Positions 8,202 to 24,395 of a stretch of DNA of 64,000 nt are shown here, one piece after another. Under the pieces are notes generated by a model. That model saw nothing but the letters and a program-made list of their open reading frames with translations. It ran no database searches and was not told the DNA's origin. Position numbers and translations under genes: made by a program. Position 1 is the first letter of the stretch; each line of letters opens with the position of its first letter. Origin of the DNA: Candidatus Omnitrophota bacterium (GTDB lineage: Bacteria; Omnitrophota; Gorgyraeia; JAGLLT01); assembly GCA_030632085.1 (NCBI GenBank), contig DAOVJY010000001.1, positions 142,289-206,288 of the forward strand, given 5' to 3'.

Positions 8202-8296
8202 CTTACTCTCCTTTTGTAATAAATTATAGATTATTACACTACCTAGCGCTTAATCTACAATTTTCTTTCTTTAAGGAACTTTTATATTACACATAG

Positions 8297-8325
8297 ATTA
8301 TACATAAAACACATTAAATAATCAA
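8297..8325 (-). promoter_or_regulatory. Promoter TTGATT-17-TATAAT for the RRM gene 7785..8201
   Basis: Reverse complement reads caagcTTGATTatttaatgtgttttatgTATAAT, followed by an AAAGTTCCTTAAAG leader. Confidence 0.65.
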
Positions 8326-8484
8326 GCTTGGACACTTGGTTCTATGTCTTCCGCCTCGAAGATGATACAACCGATATTCTACCACTTCCGAGGTAATATA
8401 TACACGGTTTATTAAGATAATTGAAGTGAGTCAGAAAATTAGCATGCGACCAAAGGGAGTGCTAAGCAAAGTGAATATAAAATT

Positions 8485-8503
8485 AAAGGTGTCTGTCCCC
8501 TTT
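8485..8503 (+). repeat. Family-A hairpin copy
   Basis: 13 nt from the stop of gene 8517..9035. Confidence 0.9.
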
Positions 8504-8516
8504 AAAAATTAGAACT

Positions 8517-9035
8517 TTATTCCTTACTCACTCCAGTAATTTTAAGTTTAAGTAAATATTGCCTAATGTTTGCCGTTATATCAGGAATAACTATATCTGT
8601 ATATAGGATGTTATCTTGATATGATTCACTAATGATAACTTGATATTGCTTTCCAAACAACTTTTCGATTAGTACAATTAGCTCTCCTTTAACCAAATTT
8701 TCTATTTTTTTTTGCTCATCCATATTGCTGGAAGAAAAGGTTTCAGTAAAATCCATGGGATTAAATTCACCCGTTTCTTGCATCTCTAATGCTTTGCGCA
8801 TCATAGAGTCCTCTAATTCTTTATAGGTTTGATAGCTGTCTTTAAGCTCCTTGTTTTCCGGTTTAGAAAAAACCAGTTCTAATAATAAAGGTTCAACTTC
8901 TCTAAATTGTATTTTAGCAACACTGATTGAGGTTTTTTCGGCAAAACAAAAATTTTGAACACAGAGGATTAATAAAATTACAAGTACAATTTTTTTACTC
9001 ATTTTTCTCCTTTTTTCATTTTCTTTATCTAACAA
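8517..9035 (-). CDS. Secreted hypothetical protein
   Basis: A signal peptide is present (MSKKIVLVILLILCVQNFCFA). There is no family match. The likely start is the internal Met. Confidence 0.45.
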   Translation of the reverse strand: MLDKENEKRRKMSKKIVLVILLILCVQNFCFAEKTSISVAKIQFREVEPLLLELVFSKPENKELKDSYQTYKELEDSMMRKALEMQETGEFNPMDFTETFSSSNMDEQKKIENLVKGELIVLIEKLFGKQYQVIISESYQDNILYTDIVIPDITANIRQYLLKLKITGVSKE

Positions 9036-9079
9036 TTAATATACGAACTTCATTTTTTAAGGAATCTTATATTGCATTT

Positions 9080-9109
9080 ATTATAACATAAAGCATACTA
9101 AATACTCAA
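9080..9109 (-). promoter_or_regulatory. Promoter TTGAGT-18-TATAAT plus conserved leader for gene 8517..9035
   Basis: The reverse-complement leader AGATTCCTTAAAAAATGAAGTTCGTATATTAATTGTTAGATAAAG aligns with the leader at 22160-22227. Confidence 0.65.
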
Positions 9110-9260
9110 GCTTAGTGCTTCTATGTCTTTCGCCGTAAAATTCATTTATTGTTCGAGGTTTCGCCTCGAACACTATAAGATTAAAGCACGCATTACCAAA
9201 AGAAGAGCATATTGTTACACCTACGAGGTGTAATATATTTAATATCATATTTGTCAAATA

Positions 9261-9279
9261 AAAGGTGTCTGTCCCCTTT
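9261..9279 (+). repeat. Family-A hairpin copy
   Basis: 36 nt from the relE-like stop. Confidence 0.9.
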
Positions 9280-9315
9280 TATCCATTGCTATAAGCTCTT
9301 GCTATCAATATTAAC

Positions 9316-9762
9316 CTAAGGATATTTATCTTTAATCCATTTTTGAATCTTGGGGTCATTCGGGTTATGTGAAACATAGCCCTTTTTAACGAATTTCTTA
9401 AACTCTTCATAGGGATCGTTTTTGCTGCCGGACTTACGTATATGGCCTTCATCATTCAAATATAAATAAATTATAATCAAAGGGTTGCTGGAAAAACAGA
9501 AAATAATGCGATAACGCTGTAATCCGCTCTTATAACGCCTGTATTTTTTCAGATCTCTCTTAAGGCGATATTCAGGAAGATTCGGATCTTGGGGGATGAT
9601 ATTTTGATCGGCATTGCGGATACGCGCGGCAAGTTTTACAATCTCATGCTGTTTATAATCTTTATTTGATAATTTTGCTTTTAAAGCTTTGACTTGCTCT
9701 TTTAAACCTGAAACGCGAAGATAATAGTGATGATGATATTTCAAAACATATTTATTCACCAT
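9316..9762 (-). CDS. RelE/ParE-superfamily toxin
   Basis: YRLKRDL...YRIIFCF...IIIYLYLNDEGHIRK matches the RelE/ParE YRIIY...IGHRK pattern. It overlaps the upstream antitoxin gene by 11 nt. Confidence 0.6.
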   Translation of the reverse strand: MVNKYVLKYHHHYYLRVSGLKEQVKALKAKLSNKDYKQHEIVKLAARIRNADQNIIPQDPNLPEYRLKRDLKKYRRYKSGLQRYRIIFCFSSNPLIIIYLYLNDEGHIRKSGSKNDPYEEFKKFVKKGYVSHNPNDPKIQKWIKDKYP

Positions 9763-10051
9763 CTACTTCAATACCCTCAAGAAGCTTGTCCCACTCCTTA
9801 TCCCAGACTTCTTTAACATTTCTTAACTTATCTGGATGCTTTAAGGCATCTTTTATCAAAGCCTCTACAAATGAATGAAAAAGAGGGTCAGCTTCAATAG
9901 TATCAAGATTATTTTGGGCGCGGATACTAATCTTGTCCTGCGCACTTTCTATAATCACTTCTTTAGTACCGGTGTGTCTCACAAAATCCATAGGTATATC
10001 TACGGCATAACTGCCGCCATGCTTAAACAATTTTTTAACTGCAGTTCTCAT
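9752..10051 (-). CDS. AbrB/MazE-fold antitoxin partner of the RelE-like toxin
   Basis: 99 aa with a GGSYAVDIPMDFV swapped-hairpin-like N-terminus. The antitoxin-first operon layout is preceded by a TTGACA-17-TATACT promoter on the minus strand (about 10090-10125). Confidence 0.5.
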   Translation of the reverse strand: MRTAVKKLFKHGGSYAVDIPMDFVRHTGTKEVIIESAQDKISIRAQNNLDTIEADPLFHSFVEALIKDALKHPDKLRNVKEVWDKEWDKLLEGIEVDGE

Positions 10052-10210
10052 TTCTCATCTCCTATATTATCATTTCTATAAGTATTACTTTGATCTATTG
10101 CATAAGTATATACTAATGTGTATATATTGTCAAGATAATAGCATATATTCACCATCTTTATCTGAGAGGATTCTTCTGGTAAGATTTGATAGAATTTTCA
10201 TTAATAATTA

Positions 10211-10229
10211 AAAGGTGTCTGTCCCCTTT
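10211..10229 (+). repeat. Family-A hairpin copy
   Basis: 11 nt from the PEP-CTERM gene stop. Confidence 0.9.
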
Positions 10230-10240
10230 TAATTAAAAAC

Positions 10241-11239
10241 CTATTCTTTTAACTTTTTCCTCAATCCAAAAACTCCAAACAACCCCGCGCCTAAGAGTAA
10301 AATGGTCGAGGGTTCAGGGACAGCATAAACGTCTATCCTGTTTATAAAATAATCGCTTTCTTCCATTAACATATCCAAATCATTTATATATCGAGGAAGA
10401 AAAGTATCATACGTATACCAACTGGTCATTGGAGGCACGGCAGATACCGCAGAATGAACACCAAATAGCGTCAACTCCCCGCCCCATAATACAAAGGTTG
10501 GACTGCTAGAATCTCCTCCCACGGCCCCGGCATTATCAGGATAGCCGGGATCTGGACCTAAACGATTGTAGTTTTCCTCGCTACGAAAAAGGGAAGAAGC
10601 ATATAATGTCTGTTCATAGGCATTAGCAGGGCAGTGATAACCAAAACTACCTATTTCATTATTGCGTCCTACCTGCGCGCCTTGGCCATAAAGATATATA
10701 TTACTTTCAACTTGCGCACCGAGAGAGGTTCCCCACCAGTTTACATCATAATAAGGAGAACTTGGATCATCGGTATCCAGAATAGAATAGTGGGAAATCT
10801 TGTCAGCCTCAGACACAGTTTCACTAAGCCAACCAAGGGCAAGATCACAGGGATGAGAACCGAATTCATTAACATTGTCAATAACGCGGGAAGAATATTT
10901 ATTAACTGTATAAGATTTCAGTTGCCCTTCTCTGTTTATGAAGTTAATTGTGTTTCCAGTGGGCACTTTCCAGTGATTGGCGCAAACAAAATGTTGCGGC
11001 GATACCATTGTCACGCTGCGCGATGACATGCCCATGTCCCACCCTACACCCGACCAGTCATATTGTGAAGCAAAAAAATCAGGGTTGTTTACAGGATTAC
11101 CGGCATATGTTCCCGGATTAAACCTGTCATGCCGAGCGGGATTATACCCGTTTATTTGCAGGGCTTGAGCGTTTGCGGAATAACCAATACCCAGAAATAG
11201 TAAGAAAATCGCTGTCCATTTAGGTAAATTCATATACAT
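10241..11239 (-). CDS. PEP-CTERM sorting-signal secreted protein
   Basis: An N-terminal signal peptide is present. The C-terminus VPEPSTILLLGAGLFGVFGLRKKLKE is a VPEP motif followed by a TM helix and a basic tail. Confidence 0.75.
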   Translation of the reverse strand: MYMNLPKWTAIFLLFLGIGYSANAQALQINGYNPARHDRFNPGTYAGNPVNNPDFFASQYDWSGVGWDMGMSSRSVTMVSPQHFVCANHWKVPTGNTINFINREGQLKSYTVNKYSSRVIDNVNEFGSHPCDLALGWLSETVSEADKISHYSILDTDDPSSPYYDVNWWGTSLGAQVESNIYLYGQGAQVGRNNEIGSFGYHCPANAYEQTLYASSLFRSEENYNRLGPDPGYPDNAGAVGGDSSSPTFVLWGGELTLFGVHSAVSAVPPMTSWYTYDTFLPRYINDLDMLMEESDYFINRIDVYAVPEPSTILLLGAGLFGVFGLRKKLKE

Positions 11240-11426
11240 AACTTTCTCCAGTATTAAAAAAACACAAAGAAGTAAACAAAACTATATCAATTATAACAGA
11301 AAGATACAGGTTATCAAGTGGAGAAATTTTTCTTATTTAGGGAATATATTGCTGTATGCTATATAAGCTATTGAAGAAATTTAGGAAATTAGTAGCGTGA
11401 TTGAATGTGTCAATTAAGGGGTACTT

Positions 11427-11448
11427 AAGGGAGGTGACCCCTTTTTAA
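11427..11448 (+). repeat. Family-B hairpin AAGGGAGGTGACCCCTTTTTAA
   Basis: 17 nt from the RRM2 stop. Family-B copies at 13139-13160, 24396-24415 and 25136-25158 read AAGGGAGTTGACCCCTTTTT. Confidence 0.85.
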
Positions 11449-11465
11449 TTTCCTTTTTAATTTTG

Positions 11466-11714
11466 CTATGCCTTTTTGTCTTCAGCTTTTTTAACACGGA
11501 TTTTATTGCTGGCAACTTTCTTATTGTTCAAGCTTTTTATCGCAAATTTGGCTTCTTCTGGTTTCAGCATTTCAACAAAACCAAAACCCTTGGATCCACC
11601 GGTGGATTTATCTAACACCAAATCACAAGATTGTACGGCGCCATATTCTTCAAAGAGAACTTTTAATTCTTCTTCGGTAGTACTACGAGCAAGATTAAGA
11701 ATTATTAATTTCAT
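11466..11714 (-). CDS. RRM-domain RNA-binding protein (short, no Gly tail)
   Basis: LIILNLARS (RNP2) and KGFGFVEM (RNP1) motifs are present. It is a paralog of the gene at 7785..8201. Confidence 0.8.
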   Translation of the reverse strand: MKLIILNLARSTTEEELKVLFEEYGAVQSCDLVLDKSTGGSKGFGFVEMLKPEEAKFAIKSLNNKKVASNKIRVKKAEDKKA

Positions 11715-11757
11715 AAGTTAATACCCCTTTAAGTATCTAGTGATTCCACAGTATCGT

Positions 11758-11777
11758 AAAAAGGGGTCTGTCCCCTT
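11758..11777 (+). repeat. Family-A hairpin, perfect-stem variant
   Basis: It lies between the stop of 11834..12148 and the RRM2 start. Confidence 0.85.
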
Positions 11778-11833
11778 ATTCGAGTGGAAACCCTTCATTA
11801 TTGATTTGAGTTTTAACAGTTACTATTATGGTG

Positions 11834-12148
11834 TCAATATTCATTTGCTTCAGTATATGCTGCGTTTATGCCCTCTTTATAATATTGAACGATTTCACTA
11901 TTCAAATCTGCCTTAGTTTGAGTTGTCAAAGCACAATGTAAATCTGACCATATAGTATAAAGATATCCGGCAGATATTCTTAAATTTGACCACCCTTCAT
12001 TGTAATATCCTTTGTCAATATAAGAACTATTTTGAAAGTATTTCTTCCTGAAACTTGCTAATTTTCGGTTCCAACTATGAGACCATTCCAACCAGTCTTT
12101 TTCGTACATTACAAAATTATTTTCTTTGGTACTGTACTTATGAATCAA
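11834..12148 (-). CDS. Hypothetical protein (W/Y-rich), TTG start
   Basis: ORF-track ORF. Manual extension (my base indexing was not exact) suggests the frame stays open about 230 nt further upstream without an ATG. Confidence 0.35.
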   Translation of the reverse strand: MIHKYSTKENNFVMYEKDWLEWSHSWNRKLASFRKKYFQNSSYIDKGYYNEGWSNLRISAGYLYTIWSDLHCALTTQTKADLNSEIVQYYKEGINAAYTEANEY

Positions 12149-12339
12149 ATCATTATAAAAAAATTCTAGTTCATTAATTGCAACAAAAAGTTCCTTTTTC
12201 TCTGGGTCATGTTTTTTAATGTTTTCTTCTAGATTTTTAACGTAGTTTTTACTGGGAAAGATAAAAGTATTGGAATCTGCTTCTATTGTATTAAACTGGT
12301 AATTTCTGAAATCAATTTGTTTAGTATAAGAATCTATTT

Positions 12340-12999
12340 TTATATTTTCTCCATATTTTCCAATTTTTTCATAGATGTTTTTTCCTCATTTGTCATTTTG
12401 TAATTTTTAATCACAAATTTTTTGTCAAAATACCATTGACTACCAGTGTACAAATGTAGTTGATATATACCTTGAGGAAGAAATTTATTATCACGGGTTC
12501 GCATTTCAATAAAACCTTTTAATCGACCAGCTTCTACTTTAATTTTATTAGTATCTGTTGCTATATATTTATTGGTTGGTTTCAAGTTAGCCTCTTGTAC
12601 ATTAATAAAAAACTCTAAACCATTTGGTAGATCTGTTTCAATAAGAAATTCTATTTTGTCAAAGCTTGTTTGCTCTACATTGACAAAATTTAACATAGTG
12701 AAAGGTTTTTTGCATTGTTTTTCTTGTTTTTTAACATTGTCTATTTTGTAATCAATTGTCTTTACTTTTTTTGTGGCTACAGAAGGTGGTAAATTGGCTG
12801 AATAAACAATAATACTTACAAAAGTAGTGACTATTGTAGATAAAAAGCAAACTTTAAAAACTCGTCCACGAGTCCGATGTTTCTTATTGCCCCACCACAA
12901 AACAAGTTTAGGACTTAGCATTCCTAAAATGAATGCGAAAAATAAAAAAATATATACATGCACCGTATAGTTGGCAATTGTATATCTTATATCTTCCAT
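12340..12999 (-). CDS. Membrane-anchored hypothetical protein
   Basis: Two N-terminal TM helices precede a soluble domain. No family was recognised. Confidence 0.4.
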   Translation of the reverse strand: MEDIRYTIANYTVHVYIFLFFAFILGMLSPKLVLWWGNKKHRTRGRVFKVCFLSTIVTTFVSIIVYSANLPPSVATKKVKTIDYKIDNVKKQEKQCKKPFTMLNFVNVEQTSFDKIEFLIETDLPNGLEFFINVQEANLKPTNKYIATDTNKIKVEAGRLKGFIEMRTRDNKFLPQGIYQLHLYTGSQWYFDKKFVIKNYKMTNEEKTSMKKLENMEKI

Positions 13000-13138
13000 T
13001 TTAACCCTCCATTTACTATGTCATAAAAACGAAATCACCAGTCGAAAAGCGCAGCTTTTTAGTCAGTTGGATTAGTTTGTTAGGATTTTTCTGTTTCTTC
13101 TACTTTTAATATTTCTTCGTTTTTTTTAGGGATCTATT

Positions 13139-13188
13139 AAGGGAGTTGACCCCTTTTTAATTTTAGAATTAAAGGGGTCTGTCCCCTT
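13139..13188 (+). repeat. Tandem family-B plus family-A hairpins followed by (CCTTAT)n
   Basis: B at 13139-13160, A at 13171-13188, then CGTCCCCTTATCCTTATCCTTATCC. Confidence 0.85.
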
Positions 13189-13231
13189 ATCGTCCCCTTA
13201 TCCTTATCCTTATCCATTCTTATAATTACAC

Positions 13232-13699
13232 TTAGAAATTCGTCGTTTTACTTAATTTATTAATTAATTTTTCTGAATTTATTACTTTGAATCTTTGTCC
13301 CAATGTGTTTTCAAACCAAAAATTTACATGATCGGATTCATTTCCTTCCGGATCAATAATATGTAAATCTTCCAAATAGACAGAGGTTTCATATTTTTCA
13401 TGTTCACCCAATCTGACCCCTTTTCCCTCTTTACCTATATGCGTTCCACAGTAACCACCTTCGCTCAAATTTCCACCAAACATAGTCAAGATTACCGGTC
13501 TCCTACCGCAATTCACAATTTTAATAGCTATATGAGCACGATCATAACTAGAATTATAAGGGTAAAATTTAGCATGTGTTTTTAAATGGGCCCTGTCACG
13601 AAATCCAAAATAACCCGATATCGCTATGCTTGTAATAGAAATTATTAGTGCAGCTATTGAAACATAATCAGATATCTGCATATTTTTTTCTCCTAACAT
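13232..13699 (-). CDS. Hypothetical protein with N-terminal TM anchor
   Basis: 155 aa. The RBS leader TTAGGAGAAAAAAATATG is shared with other cassette genes. Confidence 0.4.
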   Translation of the reverse strand: MLGEKNMQISDYVSIAALIISITSIAISGYFGFRDRAHLKTHAKFYPYNSSYDRAHIAIKIVNCGRRPVILTMFGGNLSEGGYCGTHIGKEGKGVRLGEHEKYETSVYLEDLHIIDPEGNESDHVNFWFENTLGQRFKVINSEKLINKLSKTTNF

Positions 13700-13844
13700 T
13701 CATGTATACCTGCCATTAGCCAAGCTTGATAGAACGCAGAAAAAGGGCAGGTGTAGTGCATTGTTAAATGTTTTTTAAATTTATTTGTTAATTGAAATGC
13801 TGAAAAATTAAAATCAGTTTTTTTCTTTTGAGGCACCCCTTCTT

Positions 13845-14315
13845 TTATCTCTTTTTACTAGGCTGAACTATCGTATTATAATCTTTTTCATCTATAGGAA
13901 TGATAGTCTTATTCTTAAATGCCATCCCAACATTGGGAGCAGATCTAACAAAATCCAAATTATCTCTTAAATTCTTTGTCCAAAAAACTGGAGGGTCCCA
14001 AATAGATTCAATCTTGAAGTCAATCTCAAATGGCCGATATTTATTATCACCTCTTGGCGCTCTTGTAGGTTCATGGGGTTCTCTTGTAATAATCGCCTCC
14101 CCAGAGAAATACTTCACTTTTTTGCTTTTATCGCTAATATAAAATAATATTTTATCTCCACTTCTTATCTTATTAATATGTGAATCAGTGCCAAGCTGCC
14201 AACTTTGATCTTTTTGTAGCTGTTTAAAACTACTTTCAGCATTATCAGCAATGTGTGGCAGAATCCAATATCTATTAGAATAGCCGTTCATAATCCACCT
14301 CCGCTTAATTTTCAT
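13845..14315 (-). CDS. Hypothetical protein, possibly PUA-like (EVE/ASCH-type) fold
   Basis: The RYWIL...W motif near the N-terminus is weakly similar. This is a low-confidence assignment. Confidence 0.3.
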   Translation of the reverse strand: MKIKRRWIMNGYSNRYWILPHIADNAESSFKQLQKDQSWQLGTDSHINKIRSGDKILFYISDKSKKVKYFSGEAIITREPHEPTRAPRGDNKYRPFEIDFKIESIWDPPVFWTKNLRDNLDFVRSAPNVGMAFKNKTIIPIDEKDYNTIVQPSKKR

Positions 14316-14364
14316 TATTTATCTAACGATTGAGCTCACCTGCCGCCGAACGAAGTGAGGGAAC

Positions 14365-14383
14365 AAAAACGCCGCGCGTTTTT
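14365..14383. terminator. Palindromic hairpin AAAAACGCCGCGCGTTTTT, a bidirectional terminator candidate
   Basis: Immediately 3' of the serine-protease gene. It is embedded in a CACCTGC...GCAGGTG outer inverted repeat. Confidence 0.5.
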
Positions 14384-14419
14384 GCGGTCAGGTGCAGCGT
14401 TTGGTTGAGCAAAACTTCT

Positions 14420-15313
14420 TTATTTTGTATGTGCCATATCTATTGTCTCCGCAATATAGAAAGCCGGAAGAATTGCTGCGAATTTTCCTCCAGTTGGATC
14501 ATTAAAAGTTCCATGCACTATTCCCACGCAATTAAAAGCCCCTTGTCCAGAAGACATAACCCCAATTTTTACACTTGAAAGTTTAAATACGGGAGCTCCA
14601 CTAAATCCAGCAACGCTTGGGTCATCCAAAATAAAGAATGAAGCTTCAGTATTATTATCAAATCTAGAATGTCTGAATAAAGCGCTAGCAGGGTGTGCTA
14701 CTTTCACTATTGGAGAGAATTTACCTTTGACACCCAATTCAAGAGGAAAACCAACTGTAGTCAAAAAGATATCTAAATTAGGAGCTGAATTCTCAATTGC
14801 AAGTTGGTCATATGAAACGGCACGTATTGCTGCTCTAAAATTCTCGGGAGGTGAAATCGGTAATACAGCAATATCAGCTTCATTATGCAATATCCATTTT
14901 GGTGCTTGCATACCAGCAAGTTCTGATAGATTGTAGGTAAGTGGTATACCATTAGCTCCATATACCGTTGCCTTAGAATCAAAAGGTATTCCATTGGAAA
15001 CATGACTTGCCGTTACAAGATACAAATTCGGCCCTTTGGACACAAAAAAACCTGACCCTGATGTAATTAAGTTTAGTGGCTCAGGATTTGTCTTGGTTTT
15101 TTTTATCCAGACTTCCACCTCTTCTCCATTAATTGTTGTCTTCTTTACTCCTTGATGTCCCTGAAGAAACACCACTGCAGGAAAAACATCGTGAGCGGTT
15201 TGAGACAAAACTTCCGTCGGGGCTGAAAGAAGACAGATTAGTATCAACATCATCCATAATGAATATCTTCCAACCATTTTAATCCTCCTGATCATCATAT
15301 TTGTGTCCAACAA
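14420..15313 (-). CDS. Secreted trypsin-like (S1/S1B-type) serine protease
   Basis: Signal peptide present. GSGFFV...LVTASHV contains the His motif and GFSGAPVF is the GxSGxP Ser motif. Confidence 0.7.
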   Translation of the reverse strand: MLDTNMMIRRIKMVGRYSLWMMLILICLLSAPTEVLSQTAHDVFPAVVFLQGHQGVKKTTINGEEVEVWIKKTKTNPEPLNLITSGSGFFVSKGPNLYLVTASHVSNGIPFDSKATVYGANGIPLTYNLSELAGMQAPKWILHNEADIAVLPISPPENFRAAIRAVSYDQLAIENSAPNLDIFLTTVGFPLELGVKGKFSPIVKVAHPASALFRHSRFDNNTEASFFILDDPSVAGFSGAPVFKLSSVKIGVMSSGQGAFNCVGIVHGTFNDPTGGKFAAILPAFYIAETIDMAHTK

Positions 15314-15461
15314 TTAATATATGGAATAGGTATTTTCTGGATATTTAATATCATACACATTTATATTACACCATCTGTTTAAATTTACAAGTTCATTTTT
15401 TTGCTTATATTCCGCATTTTATCCATAATATAAGGATATACGAAGTTCACAAATTAATCTA

Positions 15462-16193: not shown

Positions 16194-17190
16194 CTTTGAT
16201 TAATGCTTCTGCTATCTGCACGGCATTTAAGGCCGCACCCTTTCTGAGGTTATCAGCTACTACCCAGAGCCAAAGGCCTTCAGGCACAAAGGGATCCTTA
16301 CGAATACGTCCCACAAAGACATCATCAGTTCCTTCTGATTGATATGGCATAGGATAGCGTCCACCCTTTATATCATCAACCACTTTTACTCCCGGCTGAT
16401 TATTTAAAACCTCTCTCACCTCTTCAACTGAAAGCGGCCTCTCGGTTTCTATATAGATAGACTCGCTGTGCCCGGTCTTAACCGGCACTCTGATAGCGGT
16501 GGCTGAAATCTTAATATCATTATCATGAAGTATCTTATGAGTTTCATGGACAAGCTTCCATTCTTCCGAAGTATAGTCTAGTTCAGTAAATCCGCCTATT
16601 TGAGGAATAACATTAAAAGCTATTCTTTTACTTAAGGCCTTAATAGTTAAGTCTTTGCCATCAAGAAATTCAGCAGTCTGGCTATAAAGTTCATCACAAG
16701 CGCCTTGACCGGCACCTGAAGCCGCTTGATAGGTGCTGGCAATAATCCTCTTTATTTTAGATAGCTTATAAATAGGACTTAAAGCCACGACCATCTGAAT
16801 GGTTGAGCAGTTAGGATTTGAGATAATACCTTTATTGTTTTTAACATCAGCCGCGTTTACTTCGGTGACGACTAAAGGCACATCATCCTTAAGCCTGAAG
16901 TCAGCTCCATTATCTATGACTACCGCCCCTTCTTTTACCGCAGTTGGCGCGTAAGTAACTGAAGCTCCCTTCTCACCTTCGGTGCCGGCAAACAAGGCTA
17001 TCTCAATACCCTTGAAGGAATCATGGCTAATAGACTCCACCTGGTATTTAAAACCATCAAGCTCCATCTCCCGGGCACTTCTGGCTAAAACTTTCAGGGA
17101 TGCAATAGGAAAATTTCTCTCTTTAAGAATTCTTAAGATTTCTTTTCCAACGGCTCCAACGCCGACTACACATAGCTTATATTGTTTCAT
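16186..17190 (-). CDS. asd: Aspartate-semialdehyde dehydrogenase
   Basis: NAD-binding VVGVGAVG motif and the active-site NCSTIQMVVAL motif are present. Confidence 0.9.
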   Translation of the reverse strand: MKQYKLCVVGVGAVGKEILRILKERNFPIASLKVLARSAREMELDGFKYQVESISHDSFKGIEIALFAGTEGEKGASVTYAPTAVKEGAVVIDNGADFRLKDDVPLVVTEVNAADVKNNKGIISNPNCSTIQMVVALSPIYKLSKIKRIIASTYQAASGAGQGACDELYSQTAEFLDGKDLTIKALSKRIAFNVIPQIGGFTELDYTSEEWKLVHETHKILHDNDIKISATAIRVPVKTGHSESIYIETERPLSVEEVREVLNNQPGVKVVDDIKGGRYPMPYQSEGTDDVFVGRIRKDPFVPEGLWLWVVADNLRKGAALNAVQIAEALIKDD

Positions 17191-17270
17191 GTGTTTATCC
17201 TTTTATTAGCTCATAGTTCATAGTTATTAGCTCATAGCAAAAAATAAAAATCAAAAAAAGCTGATAGTTC

Positions 17271-17648
17271 TTAGTTGATAGTCTTTTTGATAGATTTTAT
17301 TAAACTTGAGAGCATTTTACCTATTTGACTACCAAAAACTTTTAATTCATTAAGCTGAGTTTCATTAATCCAATTCTTTTTTTGAAATATTATTAACAAA
17401 GCAATAGTCTCATACAAAGAACCACGAGCAAAATACAAAAACCGAATAAATTCTTTTTTTGAATATCGACCTTTACCTTCTGCTATATTCAGCGCTATTG
17501 ATGCGGTACAAGCTTCCAAATTTTCAATTAATCTGAAATGTTTTCTATCTGTATCAAGCTCGTCAATAGTGCCGATGACTTCTTCAGCGAAATTAACCGA
17601 CTTTTGCCAGACATCTAAATCTTCAAAACTAAATTTTGGGTTATCCAT
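17271..17648 (-). CDS. Four-helix-bundle protein (23S rRNA intervening-sequence protein / Avd-like family)
   Basis: DLDVWQKSVNFAEEV...RFLYFARGSLYE signature is present. The gene is flanked by inverted repeats at 17208-17238 and 17665-17695. Confidence 0.8.
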   Translation of the reverse strand: MDNPKFSFEDLDVWQKSVNFAEEVIGTIDELDTDRKHFRLIENLEACTASIALNIAEGKGRYSKKEFIRFLYFARGSLYETIALLIIFQKKNWINETQLNELKVFGSQIGKMLSSLIKSIKKTIN

Positions 17649-17691
17649 CTTTTTTGCTTGTCCCCATCAGCCATCAGCTATGAGCCATGAA

Positions 17692-18741
17692 CTATTTCAA
17701 ATTTTTAACTACTAAATCGCCGACTTCCTGGGTGGAATAACCCATCTTACCGGCTGATAAACTCTTTAACTGAGTAGTTGTTTTCATAACTGAAGCCTCA
17801 ACAGCTTTACCGGCTTCTTCCTCGCCTATATTTTCCAAAAGCATTCCCGCCGCGCAAATAGCAGCCAGAGGATTAATTACACTTTTACCTGTGTATTTGG
17901 GAGCAGAACCGCCAATGGGCTCAAACATCGAAACACCCTCGGGATTAATGTTGCCACCCGCAGCAATTCCCATGCCGCCCTGAATCATAGCCCCTAAGTC
18001 GGTTATAATATCCCCGAACATATTATCGGTGACAATAACATCGAACCATTCGGGATTTTTAATCATCCACATACAAGTGGCATCCACATGAGCATAATCT
18101 GTTTTTACATCAGGATAATTAGCAGCTAATTTGTTAAAGGTTCTTTCCCACAAGTCCCAAGCATAAGTTAGAACGTTTGTCTTTCCACAAAGAGTAAGCT
18201 TCTTTTCTTTATTTCTCTTCTGGGTGTATTCATAAGCATATCGAAGGCAGCGCTCAACTCCTTTATAGGAATTTCTAGATACCTGAATTGCGACTTCTTC
18301 TTCAGTGCCTTTATTTATAAATTCACCTTCACCTACATAAAGGCCTTCTGTGTTTTCTCTGACGACCACGAAGTCAATATCCTCAGGGCCCTTATCCTTT
18401 AAGGGAGATAAAACTCCGGGATATAACTTAACCGGCCTTAGATTAATGTACTGGTCTAATGAAAATCTTAACTTTAACAATAAACCCTTCTCTAAAATAC
18501 CGGGCTTAACATCAGGATGGCCTACAGCTCCTAAATATATCGCATCAAAGCCCCTTAATTCTTCTATGGCTGAATCAGCTAAGACTTCACCTGTTTTCAT
18601 ATATCTTTCGCCGCCGAAGTCGTAATTGGCTAACTCATACTTAAAGCCTTTTTTAGAAGCTATGGCTTCTAAGACCTTTAAGCCCTCAGCTACTACTTCC
18701 GGCCCTGTGCCGTCTCCCGGGATAACTGCTATCTTGTACAT
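17692..18741 (-). CDS. leuB: 3-isopropylmalate dehydrogenase
   Basis: The N-terminus [13 protein letters not shown] and the IDH/IMDH family fold are present, in a leu operon context. Confidence 0.85.
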
Positions 18742-18759
18742 TTTTTTCTCCTGTTGATT

Positions 18760-18903
18760 AAACTCTAAATTCTAATATCTAAATCCTAAATAAATTACAA
18801 ATTCTAATTTCAAAATTACAAAACAAAACAACTAATAACCGTTTTGAGTTTGGAGCATTTGAGTTTTGATATTACTTAGTATTTAGTGCTTAGTGTTTAG
18901 AAT
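18760..18903. repeat. ~145-bp imperfect palindromic element (CTAAATCCTAAA...TTTAGGATTT-like arms) between leuD and leuB
   Basis: The arms are homologous to the element at 40125-40285 (TAAATTACAAATTC, TTAGTATTTRGTGCTTAGT, TTAGRATTT). Confidence 0.6.
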
Positions 18904-19398
18904 TTATTTTTTTAGTGTCGCCATCAGGCCGCCGGCATCCATCACAGACTCAATGAACTTCGGAAACGGCTCTGTTTTATAAGTTTCATTTTTAGTTAAA
19001 TTTGTAATAATCCCTTTAGTTAAATCAACTTCCAGCTTGTCATGCTCTTTTATCTTATCCGCTTCAGGGCATTCTAAAATAGGTAATCCCATATTAATAC
19101 TGTTTCTAAAGAATATCCTGGCAAAACTCTTAGCTATAACACAGCTAATACCGCAGCCTTTAATGGCCATAGGAGCATGTTCTCTTGAAGAGCCACAGCC
19201 GAAGTTCTTTTTGGCAACTATAATGTCACCCTTAATGAGATTTTTATGAAAATCCTTTTTCTTATCTATAAAGCAGTATTTCGCAAGTTCTACGGCATCT
19301 GTCATATGTAAATGTTTAGCCGCAATAATCTCATCTGTATTTATATCATCTCCGAAAAGATGGGCTTTACCAGTTAAAACAAATTTATCTTTTTTCAT
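18904..19398 (-). CDS. leuD: 3-isopropylmalate dehydratase small subunit (short archaeal-type)
   Basis: LeuD/aconitase swivel domain, coupled to leuC by a 4-nt overlap. Confidence 0.85.
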
Positions 19399-20672
19399 TT
19401 TATTTCTCCCGGGTGTGTTATATGGCCTGTAATAGCTGAAGCCGCGGCTACGGCCGGATTTGATAAATAAACCTGGCTTTCTACATGCCCCATACGGCCG
19501 ACAAAGTTTCTATTGGTTGTAGCCAGGGCCACCTCACCCTTATCCAAAATACCGCAATGGCCGCCTAAACAGGGCCCGCAGGTAGGCATGGTAAAGACGC
19601 CGCCGGACCTAACAAAAATATCAACCAGGCCTTCTTTTATGGCCTCTAAATATATCTTCTGGGTTGCGGGAATAACTATTAAACGCATCCCCTTTTGAAC
19701 CTTTTTACCTTTTAAGATACCGGCCGCTTCTCTTAAATCACTTATCCTGCCGTTTGTACAAGAACCGATTACAACCTGGTCTAATTTAATCTTATTTAAC
19801 TTATTAACCGCTTTAACGTTTGAAGGCAGATGCGGACAGGCAACCTGCGGCTGCATATCCGAAAAGTCATATTCTAAAACCTCGCTATAAACAGCGTCTT
19901 TATCGCTCTTATAAAACTCAATATCTCTTTTGATACCGTTTTCTTTCATGCGTTCTTTGACATATTCTTTAGTTATTTCATCGGCAGTTATTATACCGTT
20001 TTTACCTCCGGCCTCAATTGCCATATTACACATGGTAAAACGGCCGTCCATGGACAGCTGTTCTATTACGGGGCCGGTAAACTCCATAGCTTTATATATA
20101 GCACCGTCAACACCTATTTGACCAATAGTGTATAAAATCAAATCTTTACCGCTAACCCATTTATTTAATTTACCTTTATAAATAAACTTAATTGTCTCCG
20201 GCACTTTAAACCAGACTCTTCCGGTCGCAAACGCGAATGCCAGGTCGGTTGAACCGACTCCGGTAGAAAACGCCCCCAGAGCCCCATAAGTACAGGTATG
20301 TGAGTCAGCTCCAATTACTAAATCTCCGGGTAAGACTAAACCCTTCTCAGGCAATAAAGCATGCTCGATACCCACTTGCCCAAGTTCAAAGTAGTTGGTT
20401 ATCTGATGCTTATCCGCAAACTCCTTTAACTTTTTACAGTTGGCGGCACTTTGCTGATCCTTTGCCGGTGTAAAGTGATCAGGCACTAAGGCAATCTTAT
20501 CTCTACTAAAGACTTTCTTAACTTTAGCCTTCTCAAACTCATTAATGGCAACCGGTGCGGTAATATCATTACCCAGGCATAAGTCTATCTTGGCGTCAAT
20601 AAACTCACCCGGTGCGATTGATTTCTTATTAGTGTGATTCAATAATATTTTTTCTGTTATTGTATAACCCAT
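19395..20672 (-). CDS. leuC: 3-isopropylmalate dehydratase large subunit
   Basis: Aconitase-family catalytic domain with Cys ligands (CTNGR, CGPC). Confidence 0.85.
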
Positions 20673-20689
20673 CTTTTTCCTTATATTTA

Positions 20690-21097
20690 TTATAGAATGA
20701 TTTCTATAGCGTGATATGGACAGATGTCAACGCAGAGCCCGCAGGCAATGCATTTACTCTTATCAAAGGTAACGGTCATCTTCTCTCTATTGACGCTAAA
20801 CGCTTTGGTAGGACAGATTCCAACACATGCCGTGCAGTGAATGCACTTCTTCTTATCCCATTTAATATCACTGGTTAACGATTGAGTATTAGCACCTATC
20901 TCATGTAAATACTTAAGGCCTTTCTCAAGGTCTTCTTTTTTACCTGTAAGCTCAACCACTAAAAGGCCTTCTTCGTTAGGCATTACTCTGGCCTTCATGA
21001 TGTTGACTATCAGGTTATAATCCTTTACCAGGTGATATGTTATGGGTTTTTCAACTAATTGATGCGGAAAAGTTATAACTACTCTTTTCTTGACCAT
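20690..21097 (-). CDS. NIL-domain / 2x[4Fe-4S] ferredoxin-domain protein
   Basis: [12 protein letters not shown] and [12 protein letters not shown] clusters follow a NIL-like N-terminal domain. Confidence 0.65.
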
Positions 21098-21233
21098 ATT
21101 TTCTCCTTAAAATTACGAGTTTATTATACACAGATTAGGAATTATTGGCAAGCTTTTTTAGAGAAAATAGTTGGATTGCGGCTAGGGCGCCTGAGCACCG
21201 CGTACCACTTCGTAGGTGGAAATAGATTTTAGG

Positions 21234-21262
21234 TTGAATATTCAGCATATCTTATGTATAAT
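21234..21262 (+). promoter_or_regulatory. Near-consensus sigma70-type promoter TTGAAT-17-TATAAT (TG-extended), upstream of mntA/hepT
   Basis: TTGAATATTCAGCATATCTTATGTATAAT. The same module appears at 22132-22160 (plus) and as reverse-complement copies upstream of minus-strand genes. Confidence 0.7.
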
Positions 21263-21351
21263 ATATATAGTTTAAAAAAGCTTTAAAAGAAAGCTTAGTT
21301 ACTAATTGGCAGATGGAAAAAAGATAAAATTTCAGAAAGTGTTCTAATTAT

Positions 21352-21621
21352 ATGATTACTGAATCTGATAAAAAAACAATTGAGGAAATATCTAAGCGAT
21401 ATCACGTAAAGCGTGTGATGATATTTGGGTCAAGCTTATCTTCATCCGAGGAAAGCCGCGATATTGATATTGCCGTGGAAGGAATTCCTTCGAAGGATTT
21501 CTATCGTTATTATGGAGATCTTATATTCGCTCTGTCAAAACCAGTGGATATTGTTGACCTTTCAGGTACATCAAAATTTTCAAAACTAATTAGGCAGGAG
21601 GGTACATTCCTCTATGGCTGA
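21352..21621 (+). CDS. mntA: MntA-type minimal nucleotidyltransferase antitoxin (HepT/MntA type VII TA)
   Basis: GS...SRDIDIAV nucleotidyltransferase motif is present. It is followed by a HEPN gene with an 8-nt overlap. Confidence 0.75.
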
Positions 21622-22029
21622 TTATAAAATACGTATTGAAGCTGAATATGAATCTATTGAAAAAACTATTTCTTCTCTTCCCGAAATACCTTTATCGCAA
21701 CTTTCAGAGCTAGAACTTGCCGGAGTAGCAGCCTTGCTCCATAATTTTATAATGGTATCGAAAATGTTCTAAAACAGGTATTTCAGAAATCAGGGTTCCA
21801 AATACCTCAAGGGGCATCCTGGCATAGAGATTTACTTCTTGAAGCTGTAGATAAAAAGATTATTTCTACCTTGCTTATGGATAATTTAAAACGTTTTTTG
21901 GCTTTCCGGCATTTTTTTGGACACGCGTATGCTTTAGATCTTTTTCCAGAGAGAATGGAACCTCTCGTTTCAGATTCCTCGAATGTATTCAAACAGTTTA
22001 AATCTGAAGTAAATAAAGCAATAGACTAG
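21614..22029 (+). pseudogene. hepT: HepT (HEPN) toxin interrupted by a -1 frameshift in a T-tract (~21746-21749)
   Basis: Frame 1 gives [45 protein letters not shown] then a stop. Frame 2 continues [15 protein letters not shown]...[12 protein letters not shown] with the R-x4-HxY HEPN motif. Inserting one T into TTTT restores [13 protein letters not shown]. Confidence 0.65.
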
Positions 22030-22042
22030 CAAACTATAAATA

Positions 22043-22061
22043 AAAGGTGTCTGTCCCCTTT
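22043..22061 (+). repeat. Family-A hairpin copy, 13 nt after the plus-strand hepT stop
   Basis: Same plus-strand orientation as copies following minus-strand genes. Confidence 0.9.
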
Positions 22062-22131
22062 AAACCCTTTAAAAGAGTAAATCACCTTCATTTGGTATAT
22101 ATTCAGGCTTACTTAAATCAAACGCATAAGT

Positions 22132-22160
22132 TTGAATATTCAGCGTATTTTATGTATAAT
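22132..22160 (+). promoter_or_regulatory. Promoter TTGAAT-17-TATAAT plus conserved leader to the GTG at 22228
   Basis: The leader ...AAAGTTCCTTAAAAAACGAAGTTTGTATATTTATTGTTAGGAGAAAAAAG is shared with the minus-strand copies. Confidence 0.7.
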
Positions 22161-22227
22161 ATATGTATACCGTTAAAGTTCCTTAAAAAACGAAGTTTGT
22201 ATATTTATTGTTAGGAGAAAAAAGAGA

Positions 22228-22494
22228 GTGACTAAAAAACTACAGATGGTATTAAGCAGATTGTTATTGGTTTGCGCTTTGTTAGTTTTGGCAGTTGTCT
22301 TCCATATGGTTCTTGTGGTTCCCAAAGCTATGTCGCAGGCAAGTGACATGGCAAGACAGCTTTCGGCTCCCGAGAAGTTCGTCTACAACCTTAGCGGCAT
22401 ATGCATCACATACTGGATTCTTATCATCCCGATTCTTGTTTTCATCGTAATTGGAGCAATAATCTGGGTGATGGTTTCGAGAATTGAAACATAG
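22228..22494 (+). CDS. Small membrane protein (GTG start)
   Basis: 88 aa with two TM helices. It lies about 65 nt downstream of a consensus promoter plus conserved leader. Confidence 0.45.
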   Translation: MTKKLQMVLSRLLLVCALLVLAVVFHMVLVVPKAMSQASDMARQLSAPEKFVYNLSGICITYWILIIPILVFIVIGAIIWVMVSRIET

Positions 22495-22721
22495 AAGAAT
22501 TCCGCTAACAACGCGCCGCAACAGATTCCGAAATGACGGAACCGCTGAGTTCAAACGCAAAATAATAAATAATATAGAAACGTACTATACGCTTAAAATC
22601 ATAGTATATATTTTTTATGTAGAATTATTGCGAGCTTTTTTAGATAAAACGTTAGATTGCGGCTAGATATCCTCCGCACCCTGTACCATTTCGTAGGTGT
22701 TATTAGAATGACAAATAAATA

Positions 22722-22740
22722 AAAGGTGTCTGTCCCCTTT
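22722..22740 (+). repeat. Family-A hairpin copy
   Basis: 72 nt from the stop of methyltransferase 22813..23517. Confidence 0.9.
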
Positions 22741-22812
22741 TCCCTTTTTCTTTTTATTGGAAAATATTTATTTTTAAGAAAAAAGGTTCTGGGTATTTTT
22801 TACCTTCATTTA

Positions 22813-23517
22813 TTATTGGAGGCGAACCCTCAACATTTCGTTTCCGCCTTTTTGAAATTCGTAAGGTACTTTCTTTATATCGACCACAAAACCGCCTTTT
22901 TCAAGTCTATCTACGACTGTCTCGAGATGTCTTGATTTTTTGGCTCCCAACTCCAACAGGGGAAATATCCTTACCTCAGATGCAACCCGACAAAGTTCTT
23001 CTATTGACTGAATATGAAAATCTTCTGAAAGGTGCTCGCTGTAGAGAAAGAGAAAGTGAGAACATAAGGCAATGTCAAATTCTCGAGCTTTGAATGGAAG
23101 TGTGGGCAAACTCGCGTCTACATAACGACCTTCCTTTAAACCTGCCACATAATCGGATAAGAAGTTGTTCATAGCAGCCATACGAACTTTGCCGAGTTCC
23201 TTAACTGATGAAATATGTCTCCACACAAACTCATTTTTGTTCTTTCTGGTCTGTTCCATGATCTCTTCATATGTTTCATCCATTCGATTTCTTATTTCAT
23301 CTGCACTGAAACGGTAAATCGGATCAACAGAAACTACATGGCCTCCACGATGTTTCATCATGCAATTAAAGCTTGCGGGACCGTCGCAACATCCCAGAAA
23401 CCGCTTCCTAAGCTCTTTTTTCGCTAAGGCAAACATTGCCAAATATTCGTTGAAGGATCGTCCCCAAGGAACTACTTTTTCCAAAGTGAAAGCCATCTTG
23501 CTTTTCCTATTTGCCAT
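22813..23517 (-). CDS. Probable class I SAM-dependent methyltransferase
   Basis: FLGCCDGPASF motif-I-like sequence and a distal FDIALCSHFLFL motif are present. Confidence 0.5.
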   Translation of the reverse strand: MANRKSKMAFTLEKVVPWGRSFNEYLAMFALAKKELRKRFLGCCDGPASFNCMMKHRGGHVVSVDPIYRFSADEIRNRMDETYEEIMEQTRKNKNEFVWRHISSVKELGKVRMAAMNNFLSDYVAGLKEGRYVDASLPTLPFKAREFDIALCSHFLFLYSEHLSEDFHIQSIEELCRVASEVRIFPLLELGAKKSRHLETVVDRLEKGGFVVDIKKVPYEFQKGGNEMLRVRLQ

Positions 23518-23584
23518 ATAACGGTTGAAATCACCTGCTTGAAAAATCGCACAGCGATTATTTCAAGTCAGGTGCATTGATTTG

Positions 23585-24139
23585 TTAGATGTCCCCTTTT
23601 AATTTTGTTTTATACAATAGACAACAATCCCATTCATCCAAAGAATAAACAGACATGCAGTCCAAGATAAATTCTTCCTTTGGAAAAGAACTGCCAAGAA
23701 GTTCTTCCATTGTTTTTTCAGAACCATCTGTGAATCTTGCAATTGAACAATGCGGAGTATAATGATGTGGGTTGTTATTAAATCTGAGATTTGTATCGAT
23801 TATCTTTTTCTGAAGCAATGAAAATGGTTTTAAAACTCTTGGCTCCAAATAGCACATTTTAGTATTTGGGAAATGAGTAATTCTTGAAAAAGCAGTTTTA
23901 ATAGGTGAAAAATTCTGTGCAATTTGTTCTAAGGTTTCGAAAACAAATGATGGTTTTTGATCATTTTTAAGTATTCCAACTCCAGATGACCCAATAATTG
24001 TTATTTCAACAGGAATTACTGTGCGTTGTTTCTCATATTGCATGCGAAGTGCCATAACCTTACTAGATACTGGTTCAGGTATATCTAAAACAACATATGT
24101 ATCGTGTTCAAATTTTTCCATATCTTTTGCACCTAACAA
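23585..24139 (-). CDS. Hypothetical protein (possible 2H-phosphoesterase-like fold, weak)
   Basis: HYTPHCSIARF is weakly H-x-T/S-x-like. The likely start is MEKFEH at about 24121. A conserved promoter/leader lies upstream. Confidence 0.3.
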   Translation of the reverse strand: MLGAKDMEKFEHDTYVVLDIPEPVSSKVMALRMQYEKQRTVIPVEITIIGSSGVGILKNDQKPSFVFETLEQIAQNFSPIKTAFSRITHFPNTKMCYLEPRVLKPFSLLQKKIIDTNLRFNNNPHHYTPHCSIARFTDGSEKTMEELLGSSFPKEEFILDCMSVYSLDEWDCCLLYKTKLKGDI

Positions 24140-24187
24140 TTAATATACGAACTTCGTTTTTTAAGGAATTTTAATATCTATGTCAAT

Positions 24188-24216
24188 ATTATACGCTGGT
24201 AGTGAGCAAGTTTCAA
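24188..24216 (-). promoter_or_regulatory. Promoter TTGAAA-17-TATAAT plus conserved leader for gene 23585..24139
   Basis: Reverse complement reads cagcTTGAAActtgctcactaccagcgTATAAT, then ...AATTCCTTAAAAAACGAAGTTCGTATATTAATTGTTAGGTGCAAAAGATATG. Confidence 0.7.
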
Positions 24217-24341: not shown

Positions 24342-24395
24342 ATTAAGGGAATTAGGTTTGAGTTTGGGTTTGGGTAGTTGGAAGGTCTAAACTAA

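Follow-up and report, generated by a model that had tools for sequence, protein, structure and literature searches.

Promoters that spread between unrelated genes have been described in prokaryotes as putative mobile promoters (PMPs), which are defined as stretches of more than 50 nt with at least 80% identity that lie upstream of non-homologous genes and are neither riboswitches nor insertion sequences; the survey that defined them did not examine hairpin or variable-region context (Matus-Garcia et al, 2012, 'Promoter propagation in prokaryotes', PMC3488235). In T4-type phages, the PeSL element joins a stem-loop terminator to a strong sigma-70 promoter and is repeated in hyperplastic regions, where recombination between copies shuffles ORFans (Arbiol et al, 2010, PMC2839356; Comeau et al, 2014, PMC4122927). 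Here we describe a promoter-leader repeat in a 64-kb stretch of a Candidatus Omnitrophota genome (contig DAOVJY010000001.1), hereafter the window, to which all copy counts and distributions refer. We consider it probable, reading from the sequence, that this repeat is a lineage-specific PMP family, made of propagated promoter and 5' untranslated region (5' UTR) cassettes that provide generic expression. Propagated promoters are already known, and the repeat would be a further case of them.

An earlier note on this DNA had described one promoter-plus-leader module of ~110 nt reused in front of at least five unrelated genes. We took the upstream 170 nt of all plausible genes at 5-27 kb, and in a nine-sequence alignment the repeat resolves into two separable units, a promoter module (P, ~40 nt) and a leader module (L, ~45 nt). 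The P consensus, AGyTTGAATATTyAGyrTATyTTATGTATAATATATGTA, spans the -35 box, the entire spacer, the -10 box and the start region. The L consensus, ATATTAAAgTTCCTTAAAAAAyGAAGTTyGTATATTwATTGTTAGG, is AU-rich and terminates at or beside the ribosome-binding site. P has five clear copies, four of them before RRM1, the secreted gene, mntA and the membrane gene and the fifth an orphan, while L has three (secreted, membrane and 2H genes), together with a diverged copy before RRM1 and weak copies before the endonuclease and trypsin-like genes:

22128..22167, plus strand: P of the membrane gene (22228..22494), with -35 box TTGAAT at 22132-22137 and -10 box TATAAT at 22155-22160
22171..22215, plus strand: L of the membrane gene, ending in AGGAG, which resembles a Shine-Dalgarno (SD) sequence
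21230..21270, plus strand: P of mntA (21352..21621), 90% identical to the membrane-gene copy, with an unrelated leader next to it
9073..9113, minus strand: P of the secreted ORFan (8517..9002), with TTGAGT, an 18-nt spacer and TGtTATAAT
9028..9070, minus strand: L of the secreted ORFan
24188..24216, minus strand: promoter of the 2H-phosphoesterase-like gene (23585..24121), with TTGAAA, a 17-nt spacer and TATAAT, matching the consensus at 11/12 positions
24132..24174, minus strand: L of the 2H gene
8290..8330, minus strand: P of RRM1 (7785..8201), kept at the orthologous site in the related contigs L202-L204
8241..8282, minus strand: diverged L in the RRM1 leader (nhmmer E=1.5e-3)
25072..25112, plus strand: orphan P with no open reading frame (ORF) behind it, leading into an hp2 hairpin at 25133-25157
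5870..5952, minus strand: weak, old P+L of the DNA/RNA non-specific endonuclease gene (5124..5837), with counterparts at this site in L202-L204
15307..15342, minus strand: weak L-like copy of the trypsin-like gene, with the core ATATATTAATTGTTGG

Start codons are placed at 9002 (not 9035) for the secreted gene and at 24121 (not 24139) for the 2H gene.

Pairwise identities were taken from repeat finding and from self-BLAST of the window. The membrane-gene and 2H leaders are 90% identical over 50 nt, the secreted-gene and 2H leaders 86.5% over 52 nt, and the secreted-gene and membrane-gene leaders 82% over 50 nt. The mntA and membrane-gene promoters are 90% identical over 39 nt, and RRM1 matches the membrane gene at 76% over 88 nt and the secreted gene at 73% over 116 nt. 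A 23-nt core of L, AAAGTTCCTTAAAAAACGAAGTT, occurs at three sites with at most 3 mismatches, against none in 100 dinucleotide-preserving shuffles. The repetition seen by the earlier note is thus real and beyond chance, but it is not one ~110-nt module in five places. L is complete before the secreted, membrane and 2H genes and has diverged before RRM1; the membrane gene combines an mntA-type P with a 2H-type L, at mntA the leader behind P is unrelated to L, and the 2H gene has L behind a promoter with a different -35/-10 spacer, one that is not homologous to the spacers of the other P copies. This mosaic, with P alone at mntA and L behind another spacer at the 2H gene, indicates that P and L recombine independently.

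Separate profile searches with P and L placed all copies within 5.8-25.3 kb and none in the other 38 kb, and the housekeeping part of the window (27-64 kb) has zero copies of either. These searches for further copies, which the earlier note had proposed, added from within the window the orphan P at 25072-25112 and the weak copies at the endonuclease and trypsin-like genes. The genes behind the modules are indeed unrelated: an all-versus-all BLASTP of eight downstream proteins gave no match below E=0.6, and a segmental duplication taking in the ORFs was ruled out on this lack of similarity. The upstream neighbours (yhaV, hepT, a 132-aa ORF at 24449..24847 and the secreted ORFan) have differing Pfam results or none, and self-BLAST found no coding DNA common to them. 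Clustering of ~15 billion proteins at 90% identity leaves the secreted, membrane, 2H and mntA genes as singletons, with one 67-aa fragment as the only other member of the 2H cluster, and a homology search with the secreted gene found no homologue at E<=0.001. The frame of hepT (21614-22030) is broken by a 1-nt shortfall in the T-run at 21745-21748 (LHNF|YNGIENVLK continues in another frame), so that hepT is either a pseudogene or the site of a homopolymer sequencing error; mntA is intact. Outside the window, a 26-nt leader core had no exact match in genome, metagenome and viral contig collections, which apparently do not contain the source genome; a hidden Markov model of the modules had no match in 2 Mb of unrelated sequence (200 loci), and no module copy was found in 2.9 million viral contigs.

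The spacers of the P copies are 17-18 nt, as the earlier note had stated. Its TG-extended TATAAT holds in canonical form (TGnTATAAT) for the secreted-gene copy and, outside the modules, for the PEP-CTERM gene promoter at 11317-11290, but in most copies the TG abuts TATAAT directly (TGTATAAT). The best promoter matches between 5 and 25 kb (10-11/12) are the module promoters and a few other gene-proximal sites. The orphan P faces a minus-strand promoter at ~25325-25292 (TTGAAA, 17-nt spacer, TATAAT), which precedes a 27-codon ORF (25215..25132) ending in hp2; two opposing promoters meeting at this hairpin could possibly make a small RNA/antisense pair. Two candidate translation signals inside L were examined and rejected. 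A 5-codon leader peptide, MKFVY*, occurs only in the secreted-gene copy, with ACG replacing ATG in the others, and an upstream TTG start, in frame with the 2H, secreted and trypsin-like genes, lacks a ribosome-binding site and does not keep its frame before the membrane gene. A 6-codon ORF, MKKGEK*, lies in the secreted-gene leader at 9003-9022, and the ATGA at its end overlaps the start codon of the gene.

Each small gene is trailed by a short hairpin and a T-run. These terminator-like hairpins occur in three forms, with 8 copies of hp1, 4 of hp2 and 2 of hp3 (the perfect-stem form), and 14/14 in the window have the same plus-strand loop orientation regardless of gene direction. By sequence, hp1 or hp2 together with two GC-rich hairpins, A and B, is followed by promoters that match the consensus at 10-11/12 positions; the full order of terminator hairpin, A, B, P and L is found in two cassettes only, those of the secreted and 2H genes. 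Hairpin A is of the type ACACC-loop-GGTGT:

7764..7782, plus strand: hp1 AAAGGTGTCTGTCCCCTTT, a terminator-like hairpin of 19 nt after RRM1
8485-8503, 9261-9279, 10211-10229, 22043-22061, 22722-22740, 24947-24965 and 25389-25407: other copies of hp1, the last a variant
24395..24415, plus strand: hp2 (AAAAGGGAGTTGACCCCTTTT), terminator-like, with the sequence form GGGAGTTGACCCC; other hp2 cores at 11429-11441, 13141-13153 and 25139-25151
11763-11775 and 13174-13186: hp3 (GGGGTCTGTCCCC)
9215..9233: hairpin A, TTACACCT acg AGGTGTAA, with the terminator hairpin on one side and hairpin B on the other
24324..24342: second hairpin A, TATCACCG cgg CGGTGATA
9150..9172: hairpin B, TGTTCGAGG tttcg CCTCGAACA, upstream of the secreted-gene promoter
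24269..24291: second hairpin B, TGTTCGAGGT taa ACCTCGAACA, ahead of the 2H promoter
25011..25033: third hairpin B, TGTCCGAGGC tta GCCTCGGACA, with two stem positions altered on both sides compared with the other two

Since the third hairpin B has changed on both sides of its stem, the stem itself seems to be maintained. The hp1 loop after RRM1 (7764-7782) is inverted relative to the gene in two related contigs (L202:3826-3846 and L203:723-743), which points to a hairpin flip or to concerted evolution among copies. The hp1 19-mer, with its T:C stem mismatch, and its perfect form also occur beyond this genome, including at loci L082-L201. A metagenome scan for hp1 gave at least 152 exact copies on at least 120 contigs of 25-73% GC (soil, gut and freshwater); among these matches listed, at least 52 carry the same T:C mismatch and at least 120 lie within 60 nt past an ORF stop. 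The outer stems of these copies are lengthened by differing complementary sequences. Because some matches are the same locus in several samples, the enrichment of hp1 over chance is uncertain; literature searches with the hp1 sequence gave nothing relevant, and it has no Rfam family.

We compared the window with related contigs. A search for RRM1 homologues led to contigs L202, L203 and L204, which have ~84-90% DNA identity and are syntenic with the window from 8331 down to 436. A search for homologues of the NIL-ferredoxin protein led to L205-L207 (95% amino-acid identity) and L208-L215 (~78% DNA identity), and also to L216, and L218-L220 (76% amino-acid identity). An exact protein look-up recovered an 8.6-kb contig of the same strain (L001), and LeuC relatives in genomes of GTDB species are at most 69% identical. 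In L202-L204, RRM1 and the endonuclease gene each have P+L at the orthologous site, and the module family therefore predates these species. Four-fold degenerate sites are 69-79% identical between species; the RRM1 promoter-leader, at 86-87%, is thus constrained, and the endonuclease promoter-leader, at 78%, is about neutral apart from its hexamers. In L203, the RRM1 locus (L203:169-297, corresponding to 8202-8331 in the window) has flanks and an RRM1 protein identical to those of L202, but over ~60 nt, beginning at the -10 box and reaching into the leader hairpin, it has the variants of the window. Such a window-like patch amid L202-like flanks indicates recombination within the RRM1 leader.

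Around the modules, gene content changes from relative to relative. The prlF/yhaV and secreted-gene cassettes (window ~8374-10143) are absent from L202 and L203 (compare L202:3146-3270), which carry two other small genes near the missing cassettes, and the 8374-10143 indel is bounded by an imperfect direct repeat, TGGTGAATAT / TGGTAGAATAT. Between the ferredoxin-leu operon and opp, the window, L208 and L218 have wholly different genes. The window has mntA/hepT, the membrane gene, a 234-aa ORF, the 2H gene, a 132-aa ORF and a PD-Lambda-5-like methyltransferase pair; L208 has a restriction-endonuclease-like gene, SpoIIAA-like genes, DsrE, TrmO and CPT; and L218 has sulfate-assimilation genes. 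L216, a contig that stops before opp, has a ParE toxin-antitoxin pair, hemerythrin and other genes upstream of its ferredoxin gene. Similarity to the relatives stops, contig by contig, at points between 21151 and 21176, which lie 0-25 nt upstream of the ferredoxin promoter, and in the closest relatives the contigs break off 54-135 nt before the ferredoxin start, at the edge of promoter and island. The PD-Lambda-5-like pair lies at 25461-27597; its Dam-like methyltransferase matches PD-Lambda-5_B (E=3e-110), and the 414-aa ORF upstream of it matches PD-Lambda-5_A weakly (E=1e-9), so the island beside the modules carries a candidate anti-phage system.

The P and L profiles of the window have no match in L208 or L216. 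The spacers of these two contigs have a terminator hairpin, a TACCACC-loop-GGTGGTA hairpin (TACCACCTACGCGGTGGTA) and a CCGAACCG-loop-CGGTTCGG hairpin; after these comes a promoter (CTTGCAG, 17-nt spacer, TATAmT) that recurs before unrelated genes. In L208, a 300-nt gene segment is also duplicated (5870-6169 and 8220-8519). The positions in question are:

21123..21151, minus strand: promoter of the NIL-ferredoxin/leuCD operon (TTGCCA, 17-nt spacer, TATAAT), kept in every relative
L208:6284-6351, 7351-7418, 8146-8213, 7471-7507 and 8695-8731: spacer modules in L208
L216:791-976 and 1594-1673: spacer modules in L216

Together, these observations fit module copies that descend from a common sequence and serve genes that are unrelated, recently acquired and located in fast-turnover regions, with P and L reassorted and one P left with no gene behind it. 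We infer promoter activity, transcription starts and the recombination mechanism from the DNA alone. P would be a strong sigma-70-type promoter whose spacer and start region are conserved as well, and L an AU-rich, essentially unstructured 5' leader giving an open, ribosome-accessible mRNA start. Copies stand before accessory genes that are unrelated to one another and for the most part specific to the strain (toxin-antitoxin genes, ORFans, an RNA-binding protein). The islands concerned also hold defence-type genes and are rebuilt in every related genome. Terminator hairpin, A, B, P and L could serve as portable homology between intergenic sites, and recombination or gene conversion between copies would duplicate modules, mix P with L, and move or replace the enclosed gene. 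A newly acquired gene would thereby receive a ready-made promoter, leader and terminator, and the function of P+L would be generic, immediate expression rather than ligand or temperature sensing. The earlier note had offered a mobile promoter cassette travelling with hairpin-delimited genes as one of its readings, and this one has held up: P and L are mosaic, one P is an orphan, copies are restricted to variable regions, a conserved terminator hairpin follows each gene and relatives have the same layout.

A broader proposal, which we advance only tentatively and think rather doubtful, is that accessory and defence islands are built of self-contained cassettes (terminator hairpin, two GC-rich hairpins, promoter, leader and one gene), whose non-coding modules act as recombination substrates for inserting, swapping and deleting genes. 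The same architecture with other module sequences in relatives of ~78% DNA identity suggests a maintained mechanism, not an accident.

Several points weigh against the propagated-cassette reading. As a class, consensus promoter matches are not enriched in the window (66, against 67.4 in shuffles). The only precisely mapped indel, relative to L202, has its edges ~45-60 nt upstream of P, at TGGT(A)GAATAT; these edges lie outside P and L, so that recombination at the modules themselves is an inferred step only. The nhmmer E-values of the strong copies are circular, those copies being the training sequences. Independent matches are the RRM1 L copy of the window, which was outside the training set (E=1.5e-3), P copies in related contigs (E=4e-7 to 4e-4) and L matches there (E=2.5e-4 to 0.017; the L203 RRM1 copy and three endonuclease copies), whereas in L202 and L204 the RRM1 L copy falls short of significance with the L profile (E=9 and 0.69). 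Finally, the strong L copies (82-90%) are more alike than neutral sites are between species (69-79%), a likeness that could reflect recent copying or selection on a specific function such as an operator.

That last possibility amounts to a different explanation, in which L, and perhaps P, is the site of one trans-acting factor (a repressor past the start site, an RNA-binding protein such as RRM, or a small RNA) and the genes form a co-regulated stress or cold regulon, much as the earlier note had supposed with its common cis-regulatory RNA or operator. It would account for leaders more alike (82-90%) than the four-fold sites of sister species (69-79%), for similarity that is sharp-edged with flanks that cannot be aligned, and for the constraint on the RRM1 promoter-leader (86-87%). 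The L core moreover holds the short palindromes CGAAgTTCG and ATTAAT, and some RRM1 homologues are labelled 'cold-inducible RNA-binding protein' in their sources. Against this, no theme unites the functions of the genes, which are strain-specific ORFans and not a conserved regulon, mntA has P only, and no gene for a regulator is evident close by. The endonuclease leader, compared between orthologues, drifts near the neutral rate (78% against 69-79%), the core TTCCTT becomes TTTTTT in RRM1 orthologues, the leaders match no Rfam family and their folding z-scores against shuffles are +1.75, +0.54 and -0.46 (membrane, secreted and 2H genes). We regard a shared operator or regulon as unlikely. A weak RNA thermometer-like switch seems less likely still. 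Here the conserved UUCCUU in L would act as an anti-Shine-Dalgarno element that pairs with AGGAG or AAGGAG and is opened by temperature or a factor, and the minimum-energy folds of the membrane, secreted and RRM1 leaders do join UUCCUU to the SD; in the trypsin-like copy, UCCA...UGGA takes its place. Beyond RRM1, however, this helix spans a 30-46-nt loop, is worth -3 to -5 kcal/mol and is no better than in shuffles, the pairing is broken in the 2H leader by its SD (AGGUG), and the 'SD' of the secreted-gene module is at a different position from the working SD. The trypsin-like, endonuclease and mntA leaders have fold z-scores of +0.93, +0.22 and +0.90. Rfam at gathering thresholds gave no match in the whole window, which also has no tRNA, and at E<=1 the only match between 5.5 and 26 kb was to a snoRNA, by chance. 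A structured RNA in the common L was rejected on the grounds that it folds no better than shuffles; if anything, the common leader may be selected to be open.

The RRM1 leader is the exception (z = -2.6), and an anti-Shine-Dalgarno thermometer is plausible at this gene only. Its specific structure is:

8208..8278, minus strand: UUCCUU (8278-8273) paired with the SD AAGGAG (8213-8208) around a 43-nt hairpin (8263-8221)

In this hairpin, the L-derived part has gained a partner arm. All 24/24 pairs are kept in 4 genomes (100% of 96 cells), against only ~50% of cells in shifted registers, and seven pairs vary, six via G-U intermediates and one by change on both sides. The SD helix closes the conserved hairpin, and where CC has become UU it retains G-U pairing. 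The covariation is not significant, as 138/500 shuffles reach its level with 4 close sequences, but the hairpin is suggestive of a conserved RNA structure that would be specific to RRM1 and not part of the common module. The check on leader folding and covariation that the earlier note had proposed came out negative for the common L and suggestive, not significant, for RRM1. A miniature transposable element (MITE) or Correia-like unit with an outward promoter, mobilized by a transposase encoded elsewhere, would explain copies that are dispersed, intergenic, on both strands and in one case orphaned, and promoter-carrying MITE/Correia-type elements are known from Neisseria. We consider this quite improbable: P and L are found apart, no consistent target duplication is seen, no transposase or integrase is among the ORFs screened (5.1-48.4 kb), and neither 2.9 million viral contigs nor 200 unrelated loci hold a copy. 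The terminal-repeat test, which found no common terminal inverted repeats flanking the unit in four copies, led us to reject it. Least credible of all is convergence on the host's optimal promoter and ribosome-binding consensus without common descent. All strong promoters do have TTGA-N17-TGTATAAT, including those of the non-repeat ferredoxin, prlF and PEP-CTERM genes, but the identity of 82-90% extends over the spacer, the start region and a 45-nt leader for which no consensus role is known, the 23-mer was found 0 times in 100 shuffles, and the module models match nothing in the other 38 kb or in L208. On the sequence evidence, convergence appears refuted for the strong copies and is possible for the weakest (the trypsin-like gene and the 25297 promoter).

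The window has other repeats as well. A segment (21139-21226) that reaches into the ferredoxin promoter from upstream has a second copy:

22622..22707, minus strand: decayed copy of the 21139-21226 segment, 80% identical over 88 nt

This copy lies downstream of the membrane gene and is oriented antisense to it. The duplicate is a third propagated promoter-bearing segment, and neither strand folds better than shuffles. Farther along, a 39-nt direct repeat of 92% identity (36381-36419 and 37035-37073) flanks the yefM/yoeB toxin-antitoxin pair, with one copy before yefM and the other before gap; it contains a perfect 14-bp palindrome, AATTAGGCCTAATT, and a TTGACA -35 box, and is either promoter reuse at another cassette insertion or a common activator site. 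Upstream of leuB (18767-18909), AT-rich TAAAT/CTAAAT-like repeats recur at 40145-40280 with 79-90% identity, and the AT-rich segment near 40.2 kb is partly self-complementary.

Comparison with described systems sets the locus apart from several of them. Integron arrays resemble it in having runs of single small accessory genes (toxin-antitoxin genes, ORFans), each with a conserved same-strand hairpin. Here, however, that hairpin is a 19-nt terminator-like stem without attC cores, each gene has its own promoter and housekeeping genes are interleaved. An integron was rejected: hp1 has no RYYYAAC/GTTRRRY attC cores, each gene has a promoter, and no integrase was found, the domain being absent among the ORFs screened from 5.1 to 48.4 kb. 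Hairpins A, B and hp1-hp3 recall REP/BIME elements as short palindromes in ordered intergenic mosaics after stop codons, whereas P and L are not palindromic and no RAYT-type transposase is among the ORFs screened. Correia/CREE elements and promoter-bearing MITEs are likewise short dispersed intergenic repeats able to supply neighbours' promoters, but here terminal inverted repeats and target duplications are lacking and the modules are separate. RRM1 shares with fourU/ROSE thermometers the pairing of UUCCUU (UUUUUU in two relatives) with AAGGAG; unlike in those families, there is no Rfam sequence or structure match, and the pairing is negligible in the other copies. If the cassette reading is correct, it is also a caution that a conserved leader need not be a riboswitch.

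The likeness to PMPs is closer. The pairs that bear L fall within the PMP definition: 2H/secreted has 52 nt at 86.5%, 2H/membrane 50 nt at 90% (borderline in length) and secreted/membrane 50 nt at 82%, and the P-only pair of mntA and the membrane gene (39 nt, 90%) would fall short of the PMP length. Downstream and upstream coding sequences are non-homologous, Rfam found no known riboswitch, and no transposase is among the ORFs screened. As with PMPs, the downstream genes are mostly hypothetical, the unit is neither riboswitch nor insertion sequence, and the conserved stretch begins close to the start codon and reaches about -120, like that of the Treponema example (PMC3488235). What differs from PMPs is that two recombining modules are present, set within ordered hairpins and confined to variable accessory regions. 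For a lineage without genetics, the modules are candidate strong native promoters and 5' UTRs.

In layout, the locus resembles PeSL: putative terminators and promoters would form small composite cassettes, repeated amid small non-essential ORFans, and indels between close relatives may cluster near them. As in hyperplastic regions, its copies are found only at 5.8-25.3 kb, and gene content there differs in L202, L208, L216 and L218. The location is not that of a phage: the chromosomal neighbours are leuBCD, asd, truA, opp, gap-pgk-tpi and priA, and viral contigs gave no matches. The unit further differs from PeSL in including a conserved leader and the extra GC-rich hairpins A and B; circular excision products (mini-circles) are known for PeSL. 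Because it lies on a bacterial chromosome and recombination at its modules is only putative, we do not count the locus as a member of PeSL. If the propagated-cassette reading is correct, foreign or newly arisen genes would be expressed at once behind recycled promoter-leader units; the island cassette system, if true, would be a cellular counterpart of phage PeSL and a promoter-bearing alternative to integrons. The ordered hairpin-promoter-leader layout hints that cassette shuffling of the T4-phage type also shapes bacterial defence islands and, judged by layout and context, PeSL is the closest mechanistic analogue of this locus.

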